From assembly GCF_022985615.1 (NCBI RefSeq), contig NZ_CP094965.1:30001-62000 (forward strand): a stretch of DNA of 32,000 bases, read 5' to 3'. The DNA comes from Candidatus Karelsulcia muelleri (GTDB lineage Bacteria; Bacteroidota; Bacteroidia; Flavobacteriales; Blattabacteriaceae). This document shows, piece by piece, positions 3,274 to 32,000 of the stretch (position 1 is the first letter of the stretch; the number at the start of each line of letters is the position of its first letter). The position numbers and the translations under genes are program-made. The notes under the pieces are model-generated. The model saw only the letters and a program-made list of their open reading frames with translations, had not been told where the DNA came from and made no database searches.

Positions 3274-3560
3274 ATACTATACTATACTATACTATACTAT
3301 ACTATACTATACTATACTATACTATACTATACTATACTATAAATAAATAGAATACTATAGTATAGTATACTAATACTAATTATACTAATAGATAATAGAT
3401 AGTATAGTATACTAATACTAATACTAATACTAATAGATAATAGATAATACATTACATTATAATAGATAGTATAGTATACTAATAGTAATACTAAGACTAC
3501 TAAGACTAAGACTAATAGTAATAGTAATAGATAGATAGTATACTATTACTATTACTATAA
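3274..3560. repeat. Composite satellite block: (ACTAT)13, then mosaics of ATAGT, TACTAA, TAGATAA, TAAGAC, TAGTAA and TATTAC units
   Basis: A perfect (actat)13 spans 3276-3340. From 3355 onward short arrays of other units follow, including the reverse-complement unit atagt and the higher-order block aatagatagtatagtatactaata seen twice (about 3394 and 3472). The block ends 17 bp before the peroxiredoxin ATG. Confidence 0.95.
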
Positions 3561-3576
3561 ATAGTATTAATTATAT

Positions 3577-4206
3577 ATGAATACTTTAATAGGAAAAAAA
3601 GCTCCAAATTTTAAGGCGACAGCAGTTTTAAATGGAAATTCAATAGTAAATAATTTTACTTTAGAAAACTTTATAGGCAAGTACGTAGTTTTATTTTTTT
3701 ATCCTAAAGATTTTACTTTTGTATGTCCCACTGAATTACATTCGTTTCAAGAAAAAAAGGATATTTTTTGCAGAAAAAATGTTAAATTAATAGCCGTTTC
3801 TATAGATTCTGAATATACCCATTTAGCTTGGTTACAAATTTCGAAAAAAAAAGGTGGAATTAAAGGAGTAAATTTTACTATAGTTTCTGATATAAATAAA
3901 ACTATTTCTTATTCGTATGGTGTTTTAAGTGGTAATTGGAAAATTAATAAAAAAGCTGAATTAAAAGTTAAAGGAGGTGAGTTAATCGCCTATAGAGGTT
4001 TATTTATAATAGACAAAAAAGGAATTATAAGACATCAATTGATAAATGATTTCCCTTTAGGAAGAAATGTAGACGAGGTAATTAGAATAATAGATGCTTT
4101 GCAATTTTTTGAAACACATGGTGAAGTTTGTCCTGCAAACTGGAAGACGGGAGAAAAAGGTATTAAACCTACTAAAGATGGAATAATTAATTATTGGAAT
4201 GAATAA
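3577..4206 (+). CDS. ahpC: Typical 2-Cys peroxiredoxin (AhpC/Tsa family)
   Basis: Peroxidatic motif FFYPKDFTFVCPTEL and resolving-Cys motif GEVCPANW. 209-aa track ORF. Confidence 0.9.
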   Translation: MNTLIGKKAPNFKATAVLNGNSIVNNFTLENFIGKYVVLFFYPKDFTFVCPTELHSFQEKKDIFCRKNVKLIAVSIDSEYTHLAWLQISKKKGGIKGVNFTIVSDINKTISYSYGVLSGNWKINKKAELKVKGGELIAYRGLFIIDKKGIIRHQLINDFPLGRNVDEVIRIIDALQFFETHGEVCPANWKTGEKGIKPTKDGIINYWNE

Positions 4207-4394
4207 TTAATTAATTAATTATTGTAATGAATAATTAATTAATTATTGTATTGTATTGTAATGAATATTATATTATATTATTGTAATGAATAATTAATTA
4301 TTGTAATGAATAATTAATTATTGTATTGTATTGTATTTGTATTGTATTGTAATGAATATTATATTATATAATTAATTATTGGAATAATTAATTA
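4184..4394. repeat. Array seeded on the 3-prime end of the peroxiredoxin CDS, plus an (ATTGT)n microsatellite
   Basis: The last codons plus stop (attattggaatgaataattaatt, from 4190) recur as attattgtaatgaataattaatt at about 4219, 4277 and 4297. They are interleaved with attgtattgtattgta and atattatattatat blocks. A final aattaattattggaataattaatt copy abuts tRNA-Leu. Confidence 0.85.
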
Positions 4395-8606: not shown

Positions 8607-8914
8607 GGGGCTGATTTGGTTTTGACATCAAGTAAATATAATAAGATAGCATATCGTGAAATGTAATGTAATCACGTAAAAAATTCCTTACAAAAAACTA
8701 AATGGCAAAAATTACTCTCTTAAGCTTGCAGCTTAAAAATTTTGTTCTAATTTAATTTTGTTCTAATTTTGTTGTGTCTAATTTTAGGGCTTATAACTAA
8801 AATTAGAACTTACTACTTTATAAGCTAACTTTATAAGCTAACTTTATAAGCTAAATATGTAGAACTCTTATTATATTACTTGTTTGGACACGGGTTCGAT
8901 TCCCGTCAGCTCCA
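8607..8914 (+). ncRNA. ssrA: tmRNA (SsrA), tag reading frame 8704-8736
   Basis: The 5-prime ggggctgatttggttttgac and the 3-prime ggacacgggttcgattcccgtcagctcca form the tRNA-like domain. The internal frame ggc aaa aat tac tct ctt aag ctt gca gct taa encodes GKNYSLKLAA*, with the typical ..LAA end. No CCA is encoded. Confidence 0.9.
8815..8853. repeat. 13-bp x3 perfect tandem repeat inside the tmRNA
   Basis: actttataagcta occurs at 8815, 8828 and 8841, downstream of the tag ORF in the pseudoknot region. Confidence 0.9.
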
Positions 8915-8955
8915 TAAAATGTCCCATAAAGATAAAATGTCCCATAAAGATAAAG
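8914..8955. repeat. 18-bp x2 (+6) tandem duplication starting at the last base of the tmRNA
   Basis: ataaaatgtcccataaag occurs at 8914-8931 and 8932-8949, followed by ataaag and then the rpsF ATG at 8956. Confidence 0.85.
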
Positions 8956-11718: not shown

Positions 11719-12000
11719 TTAGTCTTTCTTTCTTTTACTGACTTTACTTTGACTTCTTAGTCTTTGACTTCTTAGTATTTGACTTCTTAGTCTTAGTCTT
11801 TGACTTAGTCTTTGACTTAGTCTTTGACTGAGTCTTTGACTGAGTCTTTGACTGAGTCTTTGACTGAGTCTTTGACTGAGTCTTTGACTTTGACTGAGTC
11901 TTTGACTGAGTCTGAGTCTTTGACTGAGTATTTGACTGAGACTGAGTCTGAGACGTCTTCTGAGACGTCTGAGTCTGAGACTGAGTATGAGTCTTTGATT
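11719..12000. repeat. 12-bp minisatellite family (TCTTTGACTGAG and variants)
   Basis: tctttgactgag x5 is perfect at 11821-11880. It is flanked by variant units (tctttgacttag, tcttagtc, tctgagac) from about 11719 to 12000. Confidence 0.9.
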
Positions 12001-12553
12001 GAGGAGTTTCAATAATCTGTTTAACTGTAGAGATAACTGTATTAGAGTCATGTAATATTACTATTTTTTTTGGAGGTATATTTTTTACATAATAATTTTC
12101 TCCTATATCTAAATTGTCAATATTAATCTCTATATGATCTACCATATTCTTAGGTAAAGCCTTAATTTTTAATTTTCGGATTTTCGATATATATTCCCCA
12201 CCTTTATAAACTCCTTTGGCTTTCCCTATTGGTCTAATAGGCACTTCATAAGTAATATACTTTCTAGGGTTTAATTCCAAAAAATCTAAATGCAGGATTT
12301 TTTCTGTAATTGGGTTATATTGGATTTCTTTTAATATAGTAGTAATATTGATTTTATTGTTTATAGATACTATAAATTGGCTTAATGTGTTATTTTTAAT
12401 TATTTTTTCTACTAAATAAGTATCCAAAACAAATTTAATGTTTTTATTCTTCCCATACACTATTCCAGGCGTGTAACCAGATTCTCTTAAACTTTTTATA
12501 TGTTTTTTATTTACAATTACTCTTTTTTCTACTTTTAAAATGATTCTTTTCAT
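11744..12553 (-). CDS. rplY: 50S ribosomal protein L25 (Ctc type) with a repeat-encoded Ser/Lys/Thr/Gln tail
   Basis: The N-terminal ~185 aa (MKRIILKVEKR...GYTPGIVYGKNKN...HLDFLEL...) are collinear with bL25/Ctc. The last ~85 aa are SKTQ-type low complexity encoded by the 12-bp array. Confidence 0.85.
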   Translation of the reverse strand: MKRIILKVEKRVIVNKKHIKSLRESGYTPGIVYGKNKNIKFVLDTYLVEKIIKNNTLSQFIVSINNKINITTILKEIQYNPITEKILHLDFLELNPRKYITYEVPIRPIGKAKGVYKGGEYISKIRKLKIKALPKNMVDHIEINIDNLDIGENYYVKNIPPKKIVILHDSNTVISTVKQIIETPQSKTHTQSQTQTSQKTSQTQSQSNTQSKTQTQSKTQSKSKTQSKTQSKTQSKTQSKTQSKTKSKTKSKTKTKKSNTKKSKTKKSK

Positions 12554-12609: not shown

Positions 12610-12680
12610 GGTACTGTGGCCGAGTGGTTAGGTAAAGGTCTGCAAAATCTTTCACAGCAGTTCGATTCTGCTTAGTACCT
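12610..12680 (+). tRNA. tRNA-Cys (anticodon GCA), no encoded CCA
   Basis: ggtactg-tg-gccgagtggttaggt-a-aaggt-CTGCAAA-atctt-tcac-agcag-ttcgatt-ctgct-tagtacc-t. The U73 discriminator is as expected for Cys. Confidence 0.85.
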
Positions 12681-12705
12681 TTTATTTGCTTAGTACCTTT
12701 TATTT
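12670..12705. repeat. 18-bp x2 perfect duplication covering the last 11 nt of tRNA-Cys plus 7 nt of trailer
   Basis: gcttagtaccttttattt occurs at 12670-12687 and 12688-12705. Confidence 0.9.
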
Positions 12706-12715
12706 AACGGGAGAG

Positions 12716-13114
12716 ATGATATATTTTTCTTTTTACTATAAGTTTTCATTTAAAAAAAAAATAGAAAAAATATTACGATATGAAAAAAGTAATTTTATAA
12801 AAATTATTTATATTTTTTGCAATAATAAATATATTTCTACTCTAAATTTTTTTGTTTTCAAAAAAACAAAATTGACTGATGTTATTACATTAAAAAAGAC
12901 GGATCGCAACAAAAAAAAAGTAGGAGAAATTTATATAAATATTGATATGATAAAATTTAACTCTATTGTCTTTAAAAAAACATTTTATGAGGAATTAAAA
13001 AGAGTAATGATACATGGAGTATTACATTTAATTGGTTACGAAGATAATAATAAGCAAATTGCTGAAAAAGAAAAGTTTTATTTATGTCCTCATTATGTCC
13101 TCAAAAAGATTTGA
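12716..13114 (+). CDS. ybeY: rRNA maturation endoribonuclease YbeY
   Basis: It has the metal-binding motif MIHGVLHLIGYED and the ...EKEKFYL C-terminus. The ATG at 12716 is preferred over the track TTG at 12686, which lies in the tRNA-Cys duplication. Confidence 0.85.
   Translation: MIYFSFYYKFSFKKKIEKILRYEKSNFIKIIYIFCNNKYISTLNFFVFKKTKLTDVITLKKTDRNKKKVGEIYINIDMIKFNSIVFKKTFYEELKRVMIHGVLHLIGYEDNNKQIAEKEKFYLCPHYVLKKI
13082..13103. repeat. 11-bp x2 perfect duplication across the mnmG start codon
   Basis: ttatgtcctca occurs at 13082-13092 and 13093-13103. Each copy carries an ATG (13084 and 13095). Confidence 0.9.
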
Positions 13115-16610: not shown

Positions 16611-17702
16611 ATGAATATTGAATCTTTTATTGAACACGAAAAAATAAAAGGGGAATTATATAATCTTTGTAAATTTAATAGATTACCAACGGGTATTTTA
16701 CTTCTTGGCCCTGAAGGCTGTGGAAAGTTTAAATTAGGAATAAAATTTATAAAAAAGCTTTTAAAAATTGATATTTTAACACATCCAGATATATATTTTC
16801 TTTTTCCTTTACCGAATTTACCTAAAAGTAGTAAGTTAACAGATTATTTTTATAATAAATGGCATAATTTTTTAGTTAATCAACCTTATGGTAGTTTCTT
16901 AGATTGGAAAAAAAAAATACATTATGAAAATAAAGATTGCAAAATTTCCTTAGAGCAACTTGAAGAGGCTTTAAAAATGATAAATTTAAAATCTTATGAA
17001 CTTTCTCATAAGGTTGTAATATTTTGGATGTTAGAACACTTAAATATTAATGCAGCGAATAAATTATTAAATGTTTTAGATTCACCACCAAAGCAAGTTT
17101 TTTTTTTATTTATTGGAGAAAATGAAAACTTAATTTTACCAACTCTAAAATCTAGGTTACTTATAATAAAATTCCAACTAATTTATAATAAAAGTATTGA
17201 AAAATATTTAATTCTAAAGTTTAACTTATCTAAAAAACGAGCTCAAAATATAGTTTCTGTTTCAGAAGGTAATCTTAATACTATCTTTAAAATTTTAAAA
17301 AATAAAAAAAATACTTTAAATATTAATTTTTTAAATATTAATTTTATATTTTGGATGAGAATGTTATTCAATTTAAAAAATAAAATAGATTCATTATTGA
17401 TATGGAGTTCCCAAATTAATTCCTGGAATAGGGACAAAAAAAAAAGTTTTCTTTTGTTTTCTTTAGAGATTTTTAGAATTGCACATCGATATAAATATGA
17501 TAAAAATTACAGAAATCCATTTTTTAATTATAAAAATTTTAATTGGAAACAATTTTGTATATACATAAATACTAAAAAAGTCAGTATAATAAATTACTTA
17601 ATAAGTGATGTAATTAAAGGTATTGACAGATATTATTTCTTCTTATTTAATTTTTTATATTTGTCTTTTAATATTAATAAAATATTATTTAATAAACTAT
17701 GA
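16611..17702 (+). CDS. holB: DNA polymerase III delta-prime subunit (divergent)
   Basis: AAA+ clamp-loader-like N-terminus (LPTGILLLGPEGCGKFKLG, ..ANKLLNVLDSPP..FFLF...LPTLKSR). The C-terminal half is very divergent. Confidence 0.7.
   Translation: MNIESFIEHEKIKGELYNLCKFNRLPTGILLLGPEGCGKFKLGIKFIKKLLKIDILTHPDIYFLFPLPNLPKSSKLTDYFYNKWHNFLVNQPYGSFLDWKKKIHYENKDCKISLEQLEEALKMINLKSYELSHKVVIFWMLEHLNINAANKLLNVLDSPPKQVFFLFIGENENLILPTLKSRLLIIKFQLIYNKSIEKYLILKFNLSKKRAQNIVSVSEGNLNTIFKILKNKKNTLNINFLNINFIFWMRMLFNLKNKIDSLLIWSSQINSWNRDKKKSFLLFSLEIFRIAHRYKYDKNYRNPFFNYKNFNWKQFCIYINTKKVSIINYLISDVIKGIDRYYFFLFNFLYLSFNINKILFNKL
17316..17345. repeat. 15-bp x2 perfect in-frame duplication (LNINF x2) in holB
   Basis: ttaaatattaatttt occurs at 17316-17330 and 17331-17345. 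Confidence 0.9.
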
Positions 17703-19603: not shown

Positions 19604-19709
19604 TATAATACCTGGTATAATTAATACCTACCACCTAATACCTGGTACCTGGTACCTAATACCTGGTACCTGGTACCTAATACCTGGTACCTGGTACCTA
19701 ATACCTGGA
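19604..19709. repeat. 21-bp minisatellite (CCTAATACCTGGTACCTGGTA) x3.6 plus degenerate lead-in
   Basis: Perfect copies lie at 19634, 19655 and 19676, with a partial copy at 19697-19709. Degenerate copies (tataatacctggtataattaataccta) span 19604-19633. Each unit contains GGTACC palindromes. Confidence 0.95.
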
Positions 19710-22700
19710 ATATATTTTTTAATTGCTATGTAAACTTTTTTGTTATTTACATAACAATAGAAATTTATCTTTCTTTTATTTAAGATTACTTCTTTAACTA
19801 AAGCCTCAGTGCTTATATTTTTATAATATTTTTTTATAGTTATTAAAAACATCTCATCCTCACTGTTAATATACACGACTATTCTCTGAGTAACAGTAAA
19901 GCCTTTTTTCTTTCTCAAATTTTGAATTACTTTTATTAAATCTCTTAATAAGCCTTCTAAAATTAATTTCTTCGTGAGTTGTGAGTCTATTCCAACAATG
20001 AAATCTTGATTAATACTTAATTTCCAGAAGTTTTTGGGTTTGTAATCTATTATAAATTCTTTTATAGATAGCTTAAATCTTTTATTATTTATATTTATAT
20101 CTATATTTTCTTTTATTTCTAACTTATTCTTATTTGTTTTTATATAAGAATTTATCAAATTAATATCTCTTTTATATTTTTTTCCTAATAAATTATAATT
20201 AGGTTTTATATCAATTGTTGCTATCTTATTAAGATTTTGTTTTATTTTAATTTTATTTACATTAACTTCATTTTTAATTAAATTTAAGATATCTTTAGAT
20301 AATAAGATATTATTAGACTCTTTTTTAAGTAGAATAATTGCTTTGGTTAATTTTTGTCGAACTTTAAGATTATTTGTTTTTCTAAGAAATAATATTTTTG
20401 AAGTAATATTTTGTGCTAATTTCATTCTCTTTTCTAGAGATTTATCTACTAATTTCTTTCTATAAAGAGGAAATTTAACTAGATGTACACTTTCATAAGG
20501 TTCTTTTTTTTTTATATTGAGATTATTATAAAATTTTTCCATAAAAAATGGGGCAATAGGTGAAGAGATTTTAAATATAGTAATTAAACAAGTATAAAGG
20601 GTTTTATAAGCGTTAATCTTATCTTCATTATAATCATTTTTCCAGAACTTTCTTCTAGAAAGCCTAATATACCAATTACTTAAATCAAAAATTACAAATT
20701 TTTCTATTTTTTTTGCTACTTTAAAAATGTTATATTTTTTATAATAGATTGATATATCTTTTATTAAAGTATTTAATTTAGAAATTATCCATTTTTCTAA
20801 TAACTTTAGATTTTCTATTTTAAGTTCTATTTCATTGGGGAAAAAATTATCTATATTTGCATATAAAGCAAAGAAAGAATATGAATTAAATAAAGTACCA
20901 AAAAACTTTTTTGTTACCTTTTTTATTCCTTTTTCATCAAATTTAATATTTTCCCAGGATTTAGAATTAGAGATTAGATACCATCTAATAGGATCAGAAC
21001 CATATTTTTTTAATAGTTTTATTGGATCAATTGTATTTCCCTGATTTTTAGACATTTTTTTACCTAATTTATCTAAAATTAAACCATTGGAAATGGCCGT
21101 TTTAAATGCAATAGAATTCGAAATTAGAGTAGAAAGAATATGCAAAGTAAAAAACCACCCTCTAGTTTGATCTACACCTTCACAAATAAAGTCAGCTGGA
21201 ATATTTATTTTATTTTCTATTAATTTTCTATTCTCAAAAGGATAATGTAGTTGTGCATAAGGCATTGCCCCGGAATCAAACCAAACATCCACAATTTCGG
21301 GTTCTCTTTTTAGTGGTATTTTTTTTTTAGAGACTAAGATAACTTTATCTAAAGTATGTTTATGAAGATCTATTTTTGAATAATTTTTTCTTTTCATATT
21401 TCCAATTCTAAAATCTTCAAATGGATTTTTTTTCATATATCCAGCATCAATTGATTTCTCTATTTCCTTAATTAATTCTTCAATTGAGCCTATTATTTTT
21501 TCTTCTTTATTTGCAGTTGAACGCCAAATTGGTAATGGAATTCCCCAATATCTACTTCTAGAAATATTCCAATCTTTTAAATTTTTTAACCAATTTTCGA
21601 ATCGTTTAATCCCTGTACTTTTTGGTATCCAATTAATTAATTTATTTAATTTAATTAATTTGTTTTTATATTTGCTGGTTTTAATAAACCAAGAACTTAT
21701 TGGATAATATAATATTGGGGCTTTAGTTCTCCAACAATGTGGATAAGAATGGATATGCTTGCCAATTAGAAAAATTTTCTCTTCTTTTTTTAAATATAAA
21801 GCGATTTTAAAATCAGTTGATAAATCGTTTGATAATGATTTTTCTTTATTATTTTCATATTCTTTTTTAATAAATTTTCCACTAAATAGTGGATGTAAAT
21901 TTTTTATAAATTTACCTTTATTATCTACTAAAGGGATTAAAGTATTTTTTTTCCCCTTTATCATCATCATAGGAATTTTGTTTTTTTTAGCCAATTCAAA
22001 ATCTTTTTCACCAAAACACGGAGCAATATGCACAACTCCTGTCCCTTCTGATTCACTGACGAAATCTCCATCTATGTCTCCATCTATGATTTTAAAAGCT
22101 TTTTCACAACCTTCATAAGGTTTTTTCCAAGTAATAAGTTGCTCATACTTTGTATCCAAAAGTACTTTCCCCTTAAAGGTTTTAATAATTTTATATGGAA
22201 TTTTATTATTCTTTTTTTTAAATAAAGTAATTTTTTTCTTTCTATTTCTTAGAAAAAAAAAGCCACTATCTAAAGTTTTAGATATTGTTTTCTTAGAAAG
22301 AATTATATTTATTTTTTTTAATGTATAAGGATTATAAGTATTTATTAAAACATATTCTATATTTCTTCTTATTGCTAATGCAGTATTAGATGGTAGTGTC
22401 CAAGGTGTAGTCGTCCATGATAATATATATATATCATCTTTAATATCATCAAATTTACAAGATAGAGTGTTTTTCTTAATTTGGAATTGAGCTATTACTG
22501 TAGTATCTGTTCTGTTTTTATAACAACCTGGGTAATTTAATTCATGTGTACTTAAACCAGTTCCAGCAATTGGAGAATAAGGTTGAATTTTAAAATCTTT
22601 ATAAAGATTATTTTGATTATATATTTTTTTTAATAACCACCATACTGTTTCTATATATTTTGTATCATAAGTAAAATATGCCTTTTTGAAGTCTAACCAA

Positions 22701-23139: not shown

Positions 23140-23835
23140 ATATTCTTCTTATTCTAAGTCTAAGTCTTCTAAGTCTGTCTTCTAAGTCTGTCTTCTAAGT
23201 CTAAGTCTTCTAAGTCTGTCTTCTAAGTCTAAGTCTAAGTCTTCTAAGTCTGTCTTCTAAGTCTGTCTTCTAAGTCTGTCTTCTAAGTCTTCTAAGTCTG
23301 TCTCTGTCTTCTACTTACTTATTCTACTTTCTACTTTACTTTCTACTTACTTACTTATTCTACTTACTTATTCTACTTACTTATTCTACTTACTTATTCT
23401 ACTTACTTATCTTATCTTATTCTACTTACTTATTCTACTTTACTTTCTATTCTACTTACTTACTTACTTATGTTTGTACTTTACTTTGTACTTGTACTTG
23501 TACTTACGTCTAGACTAAGATAATTAAAGAAAGATAAAGATAATTAGAAGTAGAATTAGAATTCTTATAATTATTAGAATTATTAGAATTCTTATAATTA
23601 TTATAATTAATTATTAGAATTATTATAATAATTAATTAATTAATTAATTAATTAATTAATTAATTAGGAATTAGGAATTAGGAATTAGGAATTAGGAATT
23701 AGTTTTTTTCCTTTAGTTTAGTTTAGTTTAGTTTAGTTTAGTTTAGTTTAGTTTAGTTTAGTTTAGTTTAGTTTAGTTTAGTTTAGTTTAGTTTAGTTTA
23801 GTTGAAACAAACAAAACAAAACAAAACAAAAAAAT
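23140..23835. repeat. About 700-bp spacer built from at least eight abutting tandem arrays
   Basis: In order: the TCTAAGTC/TGTCT family (about 23152-23310); the TTCTACTTACTTA 13-mer family (about 23306-23470); GTACTT (about 23474-23506); the ATTAGAATT/CTTATAATT family (about 23545-23625); (AATT)3+6 (23629-23665); (AGGAATT)5 (23666-23700); (TTTAG)18 (23712-23801); (AAAAC)n (about 23805-23827). Confidence 0.95.
23712..23801. repeat. (TTTAG)18 perfect pentamer array
   Basis: 18 uninterrupted tttag units, ending 42 bp before the grpE ATG. Confidence 0.95.
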
Positions 23836-23843
23836 AGAAACAA

Positions 23844-24428
23844 ATGCAAATGAATAACAAGAATCATCAAATTAAAAAGAACAACAAAAAAAAATCACTT
23901 TTATTAAAACTAATTAAATATATTGAACATAGTAATATTAAAAACAAAGAAAAAATCATAAAATTAATGTTAAACTTTAATAATTATAAAAAAAAGAAAA
24001 TTAATAAATTAATAGGAATTCTTGCTGAATTTGAAAATTATAAAAAACGTATAGAAAAAAACAAAAAGCTAATAATAGAAAATGCTAATAAAAACTTATT
24101 ATTAGAATTGCTAAGTTTAGCAGAGGATTTTAATAGATGCTTTAATAGCAAGAAAGAGAAAGATAGCAAGAAAGAGAAAGATAGCAAGAAAGATAAGGAA
24201 GGAATAAAAATAATAAATAGAAAATTATGGAACCTTTTAAAAAAAGAAGGGATAAAAAAAATCAAATCGAAAAAAGGAGATGTTTTTAATACAGATATTC
24301 ATGAAGCCGTATCAATACAAACTATAAAAAAAACTGAATTGAAAGGAAAAATATTACACATAATAGAATCAGGATATAGTTTTAAAAACAAAATAATTAA
24401 ATATACTAAAGTAATTGTAGGAAAATAA
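23844..24428 (+). CDS. grpE: Nucleotide exchange factor GrpE
   Basis: ...LAEFENYKKRIEKNKKLIIENANKNLLLELLSLAEDFNRC... and the C-terminal ...FNTDIHEAVSIQ...GYSFKNKIIKYTKVIVGK are collinear with GrpE. It lies immediately upstream of dnaJ. Confidence 0.9.
   Translation: MQMNNKNHQIKKNNKKKSLLLKLIKYIEHSNIKNKEKIIKLMLNFNNYKKKKINKLIGILAEFENYKKRIEKNKKLIIENANKNLLLELLSLAEDFNRCFNSKKEKDSKKEKDSKKDKEGIKIINRKLWNLLKKEGIKKIKSKKGDVFNTDIHEAVSIQTIKKTELKGKILHIIESGYSFKNKIIKYTKVIVGK
24147..24195. repeat. 18-bp x2.7 in-frame tandem repeat (SKKEKD SKKEKD SKKDKE) in grpE
   Basis: agcaagaaagagaaagat occurs at 24147-24164 and 24165-24182, with a partial third copy. Confidence 0.9.
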
Positions 24429-27921: not shown

Positions 27922-28372
27922 GATTTTACAAATTATTAAATATGGAGATAAAATTTTACATAAAAAATGTAAAAAGATAAAAAAGAATATTTTATTCGAA
28001 GGTCTCTTTGAAAATATGTTTAATACATTACTTGAAAATATGTTTAATACATTACTTAAGTATAGAGGAGTAGGTTTATCTGCTCCTCAAATTGGGATTT
28101 CTTTGCGATTATTTATAATCAATTATTTTGATTCAAGAAAAAACATTTTTTTAAATACTAAAATTTTAAAACAATTTGGAGTTTATAAAGAGTATTGCGA
28201 AGGTTGTTTAAGTCTACCGAAAAGTTTTTATAGAATTAAAAGGAAAGAAATCCTTTTAATTGAATATTTTGATGAAAAGTGGATACGACATAATCTACTT
28301 ATAAAAGGTTTTTTAGCTCGAGTTATTTTACATGAATATGATCATATAAATGGAAAACTTATAATTCTTTAA
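27920..28372 (+). CDS. def: Peptide deformylase
   Basis: Motifs GVGLSAPQIG, EGCLSLP and HEYDHINGKL. 150 aa. Confidence 0.9.
   Translation: MILQIIKYGDKILHKKCKKIKKNILFEGLFENMFNTLLENMFNTLLKYRGVGLSAPQIGISLRLFIINYFDSRKNIFLNTKILKQFGVYKEYCEGCLSLPKSFYRIKRKEILLIEYFDEKWIRHNLLIKGFLARVILHEYDHINGKLIIL
28010..28057. repeat. 24-bp x2 perfect in-frame duplication (ENMFNTLL x2) in def
   Basis: gaaaatatgtttaatacattactt occurs at 28010-28033 and 28034-28057. Confidence 0.95.
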
Positions 28373-29537: not shown

Positions 29538-31415
29538 TTATTTAACCTCTTCATAATCTACATCTTGTACTTGTGAATCACTAGATTTTTTTTCTTTATT
29601 TATATTATCGGTTTCGTTTTTATTAAAAATTTCTTGTGAAGTTGCCCAAAATTTATTAATCTTCTCAACATATTTATCAATATCTATAAAGTTTTTATTA
29701 CTTGTAGCTTTTTTTAATTTTAATAAATAAGTTTCTATATTTTTTAGTTTGTCAGGAGTTAATTGTTTTCCATATTCTTTAATATATTTCTCAGATTGAA
29801 AAATTAATGTATCCGCATAATTAATTTGATCGATTTCTTTTTTCAATTTTTCGTCTCTTTCATAATTTTTTTCGGCCTCTTTTTTCATTTTTTCTATATC
29901 TTCTTTGCTTAAACCAGAAGAAGCTTGAATTCTAATTCTTTGTTCTCTTCCAGTTCCTTTATCTTTAGCAGAAACATTTAAAATACCATTAGCATCTATA
30001 TCAAAACATACTTCTATTTGTGGTATACCTCTAGGAGCTGGAGGAATGTCAACTAAATCAAATTGCCCAATTTCTTTATTATCTTTAAATAGTGGTCTTT
30101 CTCCTTGTCCCACTTTAACTGTTACAGCTGATTGGTTATCAATTGCTGTAGAAAATATCTCTGATTTTCTAGTTGGTATTGTAGTGTTAGATTCTATTAA
30201 TTTAGTAAAAACACCTCCTAAGGTTTCTATTCCTAAAGACAATGGAGTTACATCTAATAATAAAACATCTTTTATATCACCTGCTAATACTCCACCTTGA
30301 ATAGCAGCACCAATAGCTACGACTTCATCTGGATTAACACCTTTTGAAGGTACTCTTTGAAAAAATTTCTCTACTTCTTCTTGAATTTTTGGTATTCTAG
30401 TTGATCCCCCTACTAAAATAACTTCATTTATATCTTTTACTTTTAAATCTGCAGCTTTTAAAGCATCTTTACAAGGCAAAATAGATCTTTTAACTAATTG
30501 ATCAGATAACTCTTCAAATTTTGCTCTAGTTAAGGTTTTAACTAAATGTTTTGGTCCAGTTGCTGTTGCAGTTATATAAGGTAAATTAATTTCTGTTTTA
30601 GTACTAGAAGAAAGTTCAATTTTGGATTTTTCTGCTGATTCTTTTAGTCTTTGATGTGCAATAGGATCATTCCCAAGATTTATTCCTTGTTCTGCTTTAA
30701 ATTCTTTTATTAACCAATTGATTATAATTTTATCAAAATCATCTCCACCGAGATGAGTATCACCGTTTGTTGATAATACTTCAAAAACTCCATCTCCCAA
30801 TTCAAGAATTGAAATGTCAAAAGTTCCACCACCTAAATCATAAACTACTATTTTTTTATTTTTATTCTTTTTATCTAAGCCATAAGCTAAAGCAGCTGCT
30901 GTTGGCTCATTGATTATTCGTTCTACTTCTAGTCCAGCAATTTCACCAGCCTCTTTAGTGGCTTGACGTTGGGAATCATTAAAATATGCTGGTACTGTAA
31001 TTACTGCTTTAGTCACTTTATATCCTAAGTAATCTTCTGCAGTTTTTTTCATTTTTTGAAGTATCATTGCAGATATTTCTTGTGGAGAATATAATTTTTT
31101 CTCTATTTTTACTCTTGGAGTATCGTTTTCACCTTTAATAATTTCATAGGGTACATATTTTAATTCTTCAATTACTTCAGAATATTTTCTTCCCATAAAA
31201 CGTTTAATAGAGAATATAGTATTTTTAGGATTAGTTACTGCTTGGCGTTTAGCTGGATCACCTATTTTCATTTCTCCTCCTTCTTCAATAAAGGCTATTA
31301 TAGATGGAGTTGTACGTTTGCCTTCAGAATTTGGTATAACAGTTGGACCATTTACTTCAATAACTGAAACACAAGAATTAGTAGTACCTAAATCTATACC
31401 TATTATTTTATTCAT
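29538..31415 (-). CDS. dnaK: Chaperone DnaK (Hsp70)
   Basis: [18 protein letters not shown]..., [26 protein letters not shown]. 625 aa. Confidence 0.97.
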
Positions 31416-31460
31416 GTTAAATTCAATTAATTTTTTAATTAATAGACTTAATTATATTAT

Positions 31461-31617
31461 ATATAATATAATATAATATAATATAATATAATATAATATA
31501 ATATAATATAATATAATATAATATAATATAATATAATATAATTAATTATATAATTAATTATATAATTAATTATATATAATATTAAGATTAATATAATATA
31601 ATATAATATAATATAAT
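31461..31617. repeat. (ATATA)16, (ATTAATTATATA)3, then (ATATA)n again
   Basis: A perfect period-5 array spans 31461-31540. A 12-bp x3 array spans 31541-31576. A second period-5 run spans about 31591-31617. All lie in the divergent dnaK/rplM spacer. Confidence 0.95.
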
Positions 31618-31652
31618 CGTATTTAAAAATCAAAATAAAATTATATCAGACA

Positions 31653-32000
31653 GTGAAAAAACCAATTAATTGGTATATTTTTAATGCCTTTAATAAAACT
31701 CTAGGACGTTTAGCATCTGTTATTGCTTGTAGCATCTGTTATTGCTTGTATAATTATTGGAAAACATCAAATTAATTTTTCTAAGTTGTGGAGATAAAGT
31801 TATTATTATTAACGCTAAACATATTCTTTTAGGGAGTAAAACAAATAATAAAACCTATATTAGTTATAGTGGATATCCAGGAGGTAAAAAAGTAAAGAAA
31901 GTATCTGAATTAATAAAAAAAAGACCAGAATTTCTAATTAGAAAAGCTGTATTAGGTATGTTACCTAAAAATTCTTTTAAAAAAAAAATAAAAAATTTAT
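31653..32000 (+). pseudogene. rplM: 50S ribosomal protein L13 gene, split over three reading frames as assembled; runs off the right edge
   Basis: Own translation. The coordinate mod 3 = 0 frame from GTG 31653 gives (M)KKPINWYIFNAFNKTLGRLASVIAC, then nonsense and a TAA at 31773. The mod 3 = 1 frame over 31732-31785 gives ASVIACIIIGKHQINFSK. The mod 3 = 2 frame from 31787 gives CGDKVIIINAKHILLGSKTNNKTYISYSGYPGGKKVKKVSELIKKRPEFLIRKAVLGMLPKN... Concatenated, these segments are collinear with uL13. Confidence 0.7.
31712..31749. repeat. 19-bp x2 perfect tandem duplication inside rplM (out of frame)
   Basis: agcatctgttattgcttgt occurs at 31712-31730 and 31731-31749. Confidence 0.95.

Follow-up and report, generated by a model that had tools for sequence, protein, structure and literature searches.

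The window analysed here is the whole 32,000-nt stretch of the genome of Candidatus Karelsulcia muelleri (Sulcia), a bacteriome symbiont with a tiny genome, the host being most probably the lanternfly Pyrops viridirostris and the assembly the third genome of Deng et al. 2023 (CP094965; PMC10333215). At its right-hand end lies rplM, the gene for ribosomal protein uL13, which starts at a conserved GTG (31653, + strand) and is still open to the right when the window ends. The order of genes is dnaK (29538-31415, minus strand), a divergent spacer and rplM; in relatives, dnaK is adjoined by rplM-rpsI-rpsB-tsf, and the rpsI side falls beyond the window. A first-pass annotation made from the letters alone had named the gene rplM, and this identity is borne out by the conserved gene order, by a match to PF00572 and by the reconstructed protein, which is 96% identical to its best match, a Karelsulcia L13 (P0001); the matched proteins come from genomes of 140-157 kb. 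The features of the locus are as follows.

31416-31652, no strand: dnaK-rplM divergent spacer, with a (TATAA)n / AATT microsatellite at 31420-31617; 40 bp longer than in both relatives
31653-32000, + strand: rplM (uL13) with two frameshifts, from DNA alignments to relatives and PF00572 matches; intact orthologues have 131 codons
31653-31775, + strand: frame-0 ORF from the conserved GTG; 26 native uL13 residues and 14 out-of-frame residues, then TAA at 31773-31775
31663, + strand: window-specific A>C substitution; makes codon 4 CCA (Pro), where relatives have CAA or AAA (K/Q4P)
31711-31729, + strand: copy 1 of the 19-bp unit TAGCATCTGTTATTGCTTG, from TRF and exact search; single-copy in five relatives
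31723-31797, + strand: +1-frame ORF of 24 codons with a TTG start, carrying the native segment ASVIACIIIGKHQINFS
31730-31750, + strand: copy 2 of the 19-bp unit (31730-31748) and a TA microhomology (31749-31750) that repeats the unit start; window-specific in the three-way alignment
31757-32000, + strand: +2-frame ORF from TTG 31757; 101-codon C-terminal remnant without the first third of the domain
31782-31783, + strand: junction of a 5-bp deletion; relatives all read tct-CCACA-aagt, in a loop-coding segment of variable length in Sulcia
31934, + strand: window-specific A>C substitution; Ile to Leu in PEFLIRK, Leu being present at this site also in a Karelsulcia L13 (P0003)

Two lesions break the reading frame of rplM. 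The first is a perfect tandem duplication of the 19-bp unit, detected by TRF at 31711-31750 (period 19, 2.1 copies, 100% match) and by exact search, which found the unit twice in the window (31711-31729 and 31730-31748) and never in 100 shuffles; the chance expectation of such a duplication in the window is ~1.3e-5. The first-pass annotation had placed it at 31712-31749, which is the same duplication with the register one base off. The second, 53 bp downstream, is the loss of 5 bp, CCACA, from between tct (31780-31782) and aag (31783-31785), where the unbroken sequence would read TCTCCACAAAGT. Each of them shifts the frame by +1. For the second lesion this frame effect had been called correctly, but its nature had not: an extra T had been proposed, so that removal of one base near 31786 would give one open frame, whereas all relatives carry CCACA and it is these five bases that need restoring. 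Deletion of the duplicate copy does mend the first junction only, as had been claimed, and the two lesions (+19 and -5, net +14 bp) do not compensate each other, leaving uL13 to be read through three frames. Frame 0 yields VKKPINWYIFNAFNKTLGRLASVIAC, followed by out-of-frame residues and the TAA at 31773-31775; the +1 frame continues with IIIGKHQINFSK / IIIGKHQINFS up to a stop at 31795-31797; and the +2 frame, which carries CGDKVIIINA...GYPGG...GMLPKN, is open to the window end. Our translations agree with the earlier description of these segments, their frames and the first stop. A single uninterrupted ORF for the whole uL13 domain is absent from the window (three frames, stops at 31773 and 31795). 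The full-length protein would contain the junction peptides LASVIACIIIGK and HQINFS..CGDK and, judging from the predicted frames, cannot be reached from this rplM by standard decoding.

To polarize the lesions, the window was aligned at the DNA level with rplM from PYRLAN, PYRCLA, a Logan contig of a related fulgorid sample, CM132441 and DICMUL. The closest of these are Sulcia-PYRLAN, from P. lathburii (CP094964, 155,888 bp), and Sulcia-PYRCLA, from Pyrops clavatus (CP094963, 156,700 bp), to which the window is 99.0% and 98.5% identical, respectively, over the longest aligned segment. Flanking nucleotides are near-invariant across the alignment, and the extra 19 bp and the missing CCACA occur in the window alone as against the five other planthopper Sulcia. 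The alignment shows both lesions to be derived and, among the genomes compared, unique to this one. At the protein level, 17 of the 17 other named Karelsulcia L13 hits have 125-153 residues with at least 90% query coverage, and no split or frameshifted L13 was found among the other Karelsulcia search hits; a scan of genome contigs with an intact L13 gave one Sulcia (DICMUL) and otherwise unrelated bacteria only. At the deletion site, Sulcia proteins differ from each other by in-frame length changes (INFSPQSCGDK, INFSPQLSCGDK, INLSCGDKDK, HHFSPHSSGDK and others). Ribosomal proteins have been called highly conserved across planthopper symbionts (PMC12992758).

Standard decoding from the GTG would end after 40 codons, and the only long ORF left would be the 101-codon C-terminal piece from TTG 31757. 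This piece scores 76.7 bits against PF00572 (cut-off 23.8) over profile positions 37-118 of 119, while the N-terminal frame-0 piece reaches 17.4 bits at positions 2-24, below the 23.8-bit cut-off. Positions 1-36, which include the most conserved motif, are thus missing from the remnant. The same ORF has been deposited as the 101-residue 'uL13 family ribosomal protein' UOQ38148.1 / WP_246980468.1 (P0105; beginning MENIKLIFLSCGDK...), which the window translation matches without a difference at all 82 visible codons, including the Leu in PEFLIRK; it belongs to the 90% cluster of the best L13 hit and lies on a 156,326-bp contig, so that GenBank and RefSeq annotate the remnant as a uL13 protein. 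Aligned to solved ribosomes, Sulcia residues 6-120 correspond approximately to residues 14-131 of a 142-residue uL13, and the remnant lacks roughly the first 45-50 residues of canonical uL13, including the conserved LGRLA...GKH segment. uL13 is an early-assembly protein of the 50S subunit, essential in E. coli and universally conserved. A truncated product is unlikely to be sufficient. The rplM stop and rpsI share one base in relatives, and early termination of rplM could also weaken translational coupling to S9.

We next compared indels by region in a three-way alignment (window, PYRLAN and PYRCLA) of ~30 kb, with the following counts.

Spacers: 81 indels, 23 of them multiples of 3
Protein genes other than rplM: 23 indels, 21 of them multiples of 3
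rplM: 2 indels, none a multiple of 3

The excess of multiples of 3 in the other genes over spacers is strong (21/23 vs 23/81, Fisher p = 5e-8). Since coding indels are mostly multiples of 3 and spacer indels are not, the indels are largely biological and filtered by selection, and the alignment shows that frame-breaking indels elsewhere have been purged from the genes of this genome. The two exceptions in other genes both lie at 3' ends, in the last codons: an 11-bp insertion in ybeY (window-only) and a 5-bp indel in gltX (PYRCLA). Among ~34 window genes, rplM is the only one with internal frame-breaking indels; the other ~33 protein genes match their counterparts in relatives in length, apart from differences by in-frame repeats. 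This speaks for an assembly that is sound in general and for rplM as a true outlier.

The insertion in ybeY is a perfect 11-bp tandem duplication at 13082-13103 (TTATGTCCTCA twice), specific to the window, which also duplicates the ATG of mnmG and changes the ybeY tail from QKDLM* to HYVLKKI*. The first-pass annotation had held the rplM duplication to be the only one in coding sequence with a length other than a multiple of 3; this one, over the ybeY tail and the mnmG start, contradicts it. Being at the 3' end, it is tolerated. We considered it as a second broken gene and rejected it, since only the last ybeY residues are rewritten and the mnmG start codon is duplicated.

Such events are frequent in these genomes. 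Perfect tandem repeats with a period of at least 9 number 12 in the 32-kb window, against 0-1 per 20 kb in three non-Pyrops planthopper Sulcia, and TRF coverage is 8.3% in the window and 5.5-9.4% at Pyrops loci, as compared with 1.9-4.5% in the three other planthopper Sulcia. Besides the +11 in ybeY, other window-only slippage events are +19, +15, +51 and +40 in spacers.

An artefact of assembly or polishing, with rplM intact in reality, would involve errors of Canu (on Nanopore R9.4.1 reads), medaka and Pilon beside a long low-complexity spacer. The gene is essential and intact in every relative compared, its remaining ORF is otherwise (nearly) identical to theirs, and the lesions are clustered within 53 bp, with a window-only +40 bp change in the microsatellite ~200 bp upstream. 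Related Sulcia short-read contigs break right at the dnaK-rplM spacer, and the Nanopore-first assembly was chosen because short-read assemblies of Sulcia were fragmented. The quality check stated by the authors was even coverage rather than individual sites (PMC10333215). As differences among the Pyrops Sulcia, their text gives holA and acoB alone; rplM is mentioned neither in that text nor in the supplementary files of the two relevant papers.

Several observations speak against such an error. A perfect 19-bp tandem duplication with terminal microhomology is atypical of Nanopore or Pilon errors and typical of this genome. Polishing of the Pyrops Sulcia genomes used medaka as well as two or more rounds of Pilon, with deep Illumina data of 2x150 bp (PMC10333215); both the 38-bp duplicated tract and the 5-bp gap fit within single 150-bp reads, so Pilon should have corrected both if the reads lacked them. 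No other internal frameshift was found in the ~80 kb of coding sequence from the three genomes, which went through the same pipeline, despite many long A/T runs; errors of the pipeline thus seem to be rare. Finally, the two extra point substitutions in rplM are not accounted for by an indel artefact. All this considered, we regard an artefact as a possibility to be taken seriously, though a doubtful one. If it were the answer, CP094965 and WP_246980468.1 would carry a truncated uL13 in need of correction.

A broken frame can also be bridged during expression. Programmed recoding could yield full-length uL13 through two +1 shifts, through a 19-nt hop plus one +1 shift, or through transcriptional slippage. 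Through the duplication, every take-off codon has its identical landing codon 19 nt further downstream, and rescue of frameshifted endosymbiont genes by polymerase slippage is known (see PMC5009743 and PMC3017870). However, the split-frame arrangement is not conserved, all relatives compared having one uninterrupted ORF, and neither junction has in its sequence a slippery or hungry-codon motif with an in-frame stop. The segment 31690-31810 folds no better than shuffles (z = -0.40), which gives no sign of a stimulatory RNA structure. Within 31690-31800 we found no long A/T homopolymer (~9 or more); the longest run is T5, much too short for slippage rescue, which takes 9-10 or more, and an A10 run at rplM codons 2-4 of PYRCLA is broken by CC in the window. 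Two independent low-efficiency events would moreover multiply, leaving very little product. On these grounds we rejected +1 frameshifting, bypass and transcriptional slippage, and consider recoding of any kind very improbable. In formal terms, the ribosome could hop 19 nt from a codon of one copy to its twin in the other; the second +1 shift would then still have to be made, and the idea is unsupported. A phase-variable contingency locus was rejected as well: the unit is single in relatives, and with the 5-bp deletion, which is irreversible, no copy number would bring the gene back into frame.

How long the gene has been broken is difficult to read from the duplication itself. From the identity of the two copies, the first-pass annotation had concluded that the event was either recent, variable within the population, or an assembly or sequencing error. 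Window-specific substitutions amount to only 0.17% overall (0.06% in other genes), and the 38-bp duplicated tract would be expected to have gathered 0.06 substitutions along the entire branch that leads here from the split with the symbiont of P. lathburii. With lineage-specific divergence this low, identical copies are no proof of a very recent event, and we discarded dating by copy identity. In rplM there are two window-specific nonsynonymous substitutions against 0.20 expected from the other genes (P = 0.018), both at sites that vary among Sulcia. All four changes together, against 0.26 expected, give P = 1.5e-4, the indel part of which is partly circular, as frame-breaking indels are purged elsewhere.

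These numbers bear on whether the loss is fixed. Were all genome copies broken, uL13 function would have to come from the 101-residue fragment (possibly with small N-terminal peptides), from supply in trans or from correction of the transcript. Two indels and two substitutions in one gene suit prolonged relaxed constraint better than a very young allele, and we estimate that the indel input of the lineage would be enough for 1-2 indels in a dead 400-bp gene along the lineage-specific branch. The 101-codon ORF is still open and annotated as a protein, although an open ORF is uninformative over so short a branch, and both substitutions are at variable sites. Long-retained truncated genes, for example rplI, have been reported in planthopper Sulcia by authors who also raise post-transcriptional correction (10.1101/2025.05.16.654412). 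Against this, the fragment lacks PF00572 positions 1-36 with the most conserved motif. We know of no bacterium that dispenses with uL13, nor of any demonstration that ribosomal proteins are imported into Sulcia. A fixed and compensated loss is in our judgement quite unlikely. It is likewise unlikely that every genome copy of the P. viridirostris Sulcia has been doubly frameshifted in rplM for many host generations, with truncated or split uL13, supply by host or co-symbiont, or an undescribed correction such as hopping making up for it.

On balance, we lean towards genuine slipped-strand mutations of rplM that were dominant in the sequenced population of highly polyploid symbionts, taken from a single female. 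Replication slippage in this lanternfly lineage of Karelsulcia would very frequently give rise to short tandem duplications and deletions. In rplM, it would have duplicated a 19-bp segment with the 2-nt TA microhomology at its bounds, throwing translation into the +1 frame, and CCACA would have been lost 53 bp further on, in the loop-coding segment of variable length, for another +1. The TA microhomology at the bounds of the duplication is as expected for slipped-strand mispairing, and the type of lesion is the prevailing mutational mode of this genome. The two window-specific nonsynonymous substitutions in rplM also favour real lesions. Within-host variation of Karelsulcia is dominated by repeat-associated indels (PMC13345377). 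Intact copies of rplM would persist among the hundreds of genomes in each Sulcia cell, where ~180-880 genome copies have been estimated (PMC2859065), and the unfixed disabling allele would be masked by polyploidy. Because uL13 is indispensable for building the large subunit, its function is most likely kept by intact rplM copies; of the two ways to live with real lesions, masking by such copies is thus the most likely, and a fixed loss compensated otherwise the less likely.

Some facts sit uneasily with the preference for masked slippage mutations. It is difficult to see how a young unfixed allele would have acquired two frame-breaking lesions, 53 bp from each other on one haplotype, other than by a single complex event. 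Such clustering is also expected from local assembly failure. The remainder of the rplM ORF is undecayed, with both substitutions at sites variable among Sulcia, and a microsatellite that exceeds the length of an Illumina read lies ~95-165 bp away from the lesions.

Comparable cases come from a later study by the laboratory behind the Pyrops genomes, in which several planthopper symbiont genomes had frameshifts and stops in conserved genes, seen as the dominant variant when reads were mapped; the authors suggested either mutations not yet fixed in the polyploid symbionts or some unknown way of correcting them after transcription (10.1101/2025.05.16.654412). In those broken ORFs of planthopper Sulcia and Vidania (e.g. 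dnaE of the Vidania of Zopherisca tendinosa; 10.1101/2025.05.16.654412), a conserved essential information-processing gene is likewise split by a frameshift, and the longer ORF, at more than 60% of the length of the reference, is for this reason scored or annotated as a gene, as here. The present case differs in affecting a ribosomal protein gene and in that two lesions are present, the perfect 19-bp tandem duplication being one of them. Three papers on Pyrops and planthopper symbiont genomes (PMC10333215, PMC12992758, 10.1101/2025.05.16.654412) do not mention it. Frameshift-disabled conserved genes are therefore already noted for planthopper symbionts, and the rplM case is public only as a silently truncated CDS.

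Other systems share single aspects with this locus. Signals of the kind used in prfB +1 frameshifting and phage T4 gene 60 bypassing (conservation, a slippery site with a stop, a stimulatory structure) were sought at rplM and found to be missing; the resemblance lies in a protein encoded across frames or a gap, and the match between take-off and landing codons in rplM follows by construction. Poly(A)-tract frameshifts in Buchnera and Blochmannia genes are reportedly rescued by transcriptional slippage (Tamas and colleagues, in 2008). These too are frameshifted yet needed genes in reduced genomes of insect endosymbionts, but their lesions are single-base changes in long homopolymers, whereas those of rplM are +19 and -5 bp and the nearby homopolymers do not exceed 5; with no homopolymer above 5 near the lesions, rescue by transcriptional slippage is unavailable. 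Phase-variable contingency loci, such as the genes with tetra- or pentanucleotide repeats in Haemophilus and Neisseria, have in common with rplM a tandem repeat, not a multiple of 3, that sets the frame from the 5' part of the coding sequence, and loss of a copy reverses the shift in principle. Unlike them, rplM has two copies of a long unit, no sign of copy-number switching and a housekeeping ribosomal target; and because its 5-bp deletion cannot revert, it is not a switch. Heteroplasmic disabling alleles are known in organelles, and complementing genome lineages in Hodgkinia. If rplM is masked by polyploidy, it would share with these a deleterious allele of an essential gene tolerated through many genome copies per cytoplasm, although Sulcia, unlike them, is otherwise noted for varying very little within a host.

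Should the lesions be real, the majority genome copy in an obligate nutritional symbiont would carry a disabled form of a ribosomal protein gene that is universally essential. This would be a concrete and easily assayed case of lethal-allele tolerance in highly polyploid symbionts, whether by masking, supply in trans or correction. Both rplM lesions fit within one short read, and haplotypes could be phased directly. More generally, the Sulcia of Pyrops, usually seen as extremely stable, shows very active tandem-repeat slippage under strong frame-preserving selection.

Repeats are also found at other places in the window. The spacers at 3274-3557, 4184-4351, 23144-23831 and 31420-31617 are filled with microsatellite and minisatellite arrays (units ATACT, TAAT/TATTG, TCTAAG/TTCTACT, AATTAGG, TTTAG x18 and TATAA x34), which have many indel differences among genomes that are 98.5-99% identical. 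Logan contigs of a related fulgorid Sulcia (L016:1-90, L017:1-66 and L018:1-70) all break 66-90 bp upstream of rplM, at the microsatellite spacer, and three independent short-read contigs broken at this spacer fit the fragmentation reported for short-read Sulcia assemblies. Within genes, in-frame repeat expansions lie in housekeeping genes at 11756-12003 (rplY), 19633-19708 and 22065-22088 (ileS), 8914-8954 (rpsF), 24145-24193 (grpE), 17315-17345 (holB), 2665-2707 (a 260-aa ORF) and 28008-28057 (def). Examples are an SKTQ-type low-complexity tail of L25, YQVPGIR x3.6 at the C-terminus of IleRS and IKCPIK x2.3 at the N-terminus of S6. The unit lengths of these expansions are all multiples of 3, and their copy number is often variable among the Pyrops Sulcia.

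Repeat expansions also occur inside a structured RNA. The tmRNA gene (8607-8917; Rfam RF00023, 97.5 bits; tag peptide GKNYSLKLAA) has internal repeats at 8738-8784 and 8815-8854, with units of 16 bp and of 13 bp (the latter perfect, x3.1); the three Pyrops Sulcia differ in copy number, 26 bp being absent at 8815 from PYRCLA. At 12669-12705, an 18-bp perfect repeat (x2.1) overlaps tRNA-Cys (12610-12680) at its 3' end as well as the upstream region of ybeY, and is kept in PYRCLA and PYRLAN. Despite active slippage, close relatives have a full-length mutS (847 aa) ~2 kb downstream of rplM (L001:12379-14922 and L015:12396-14939).
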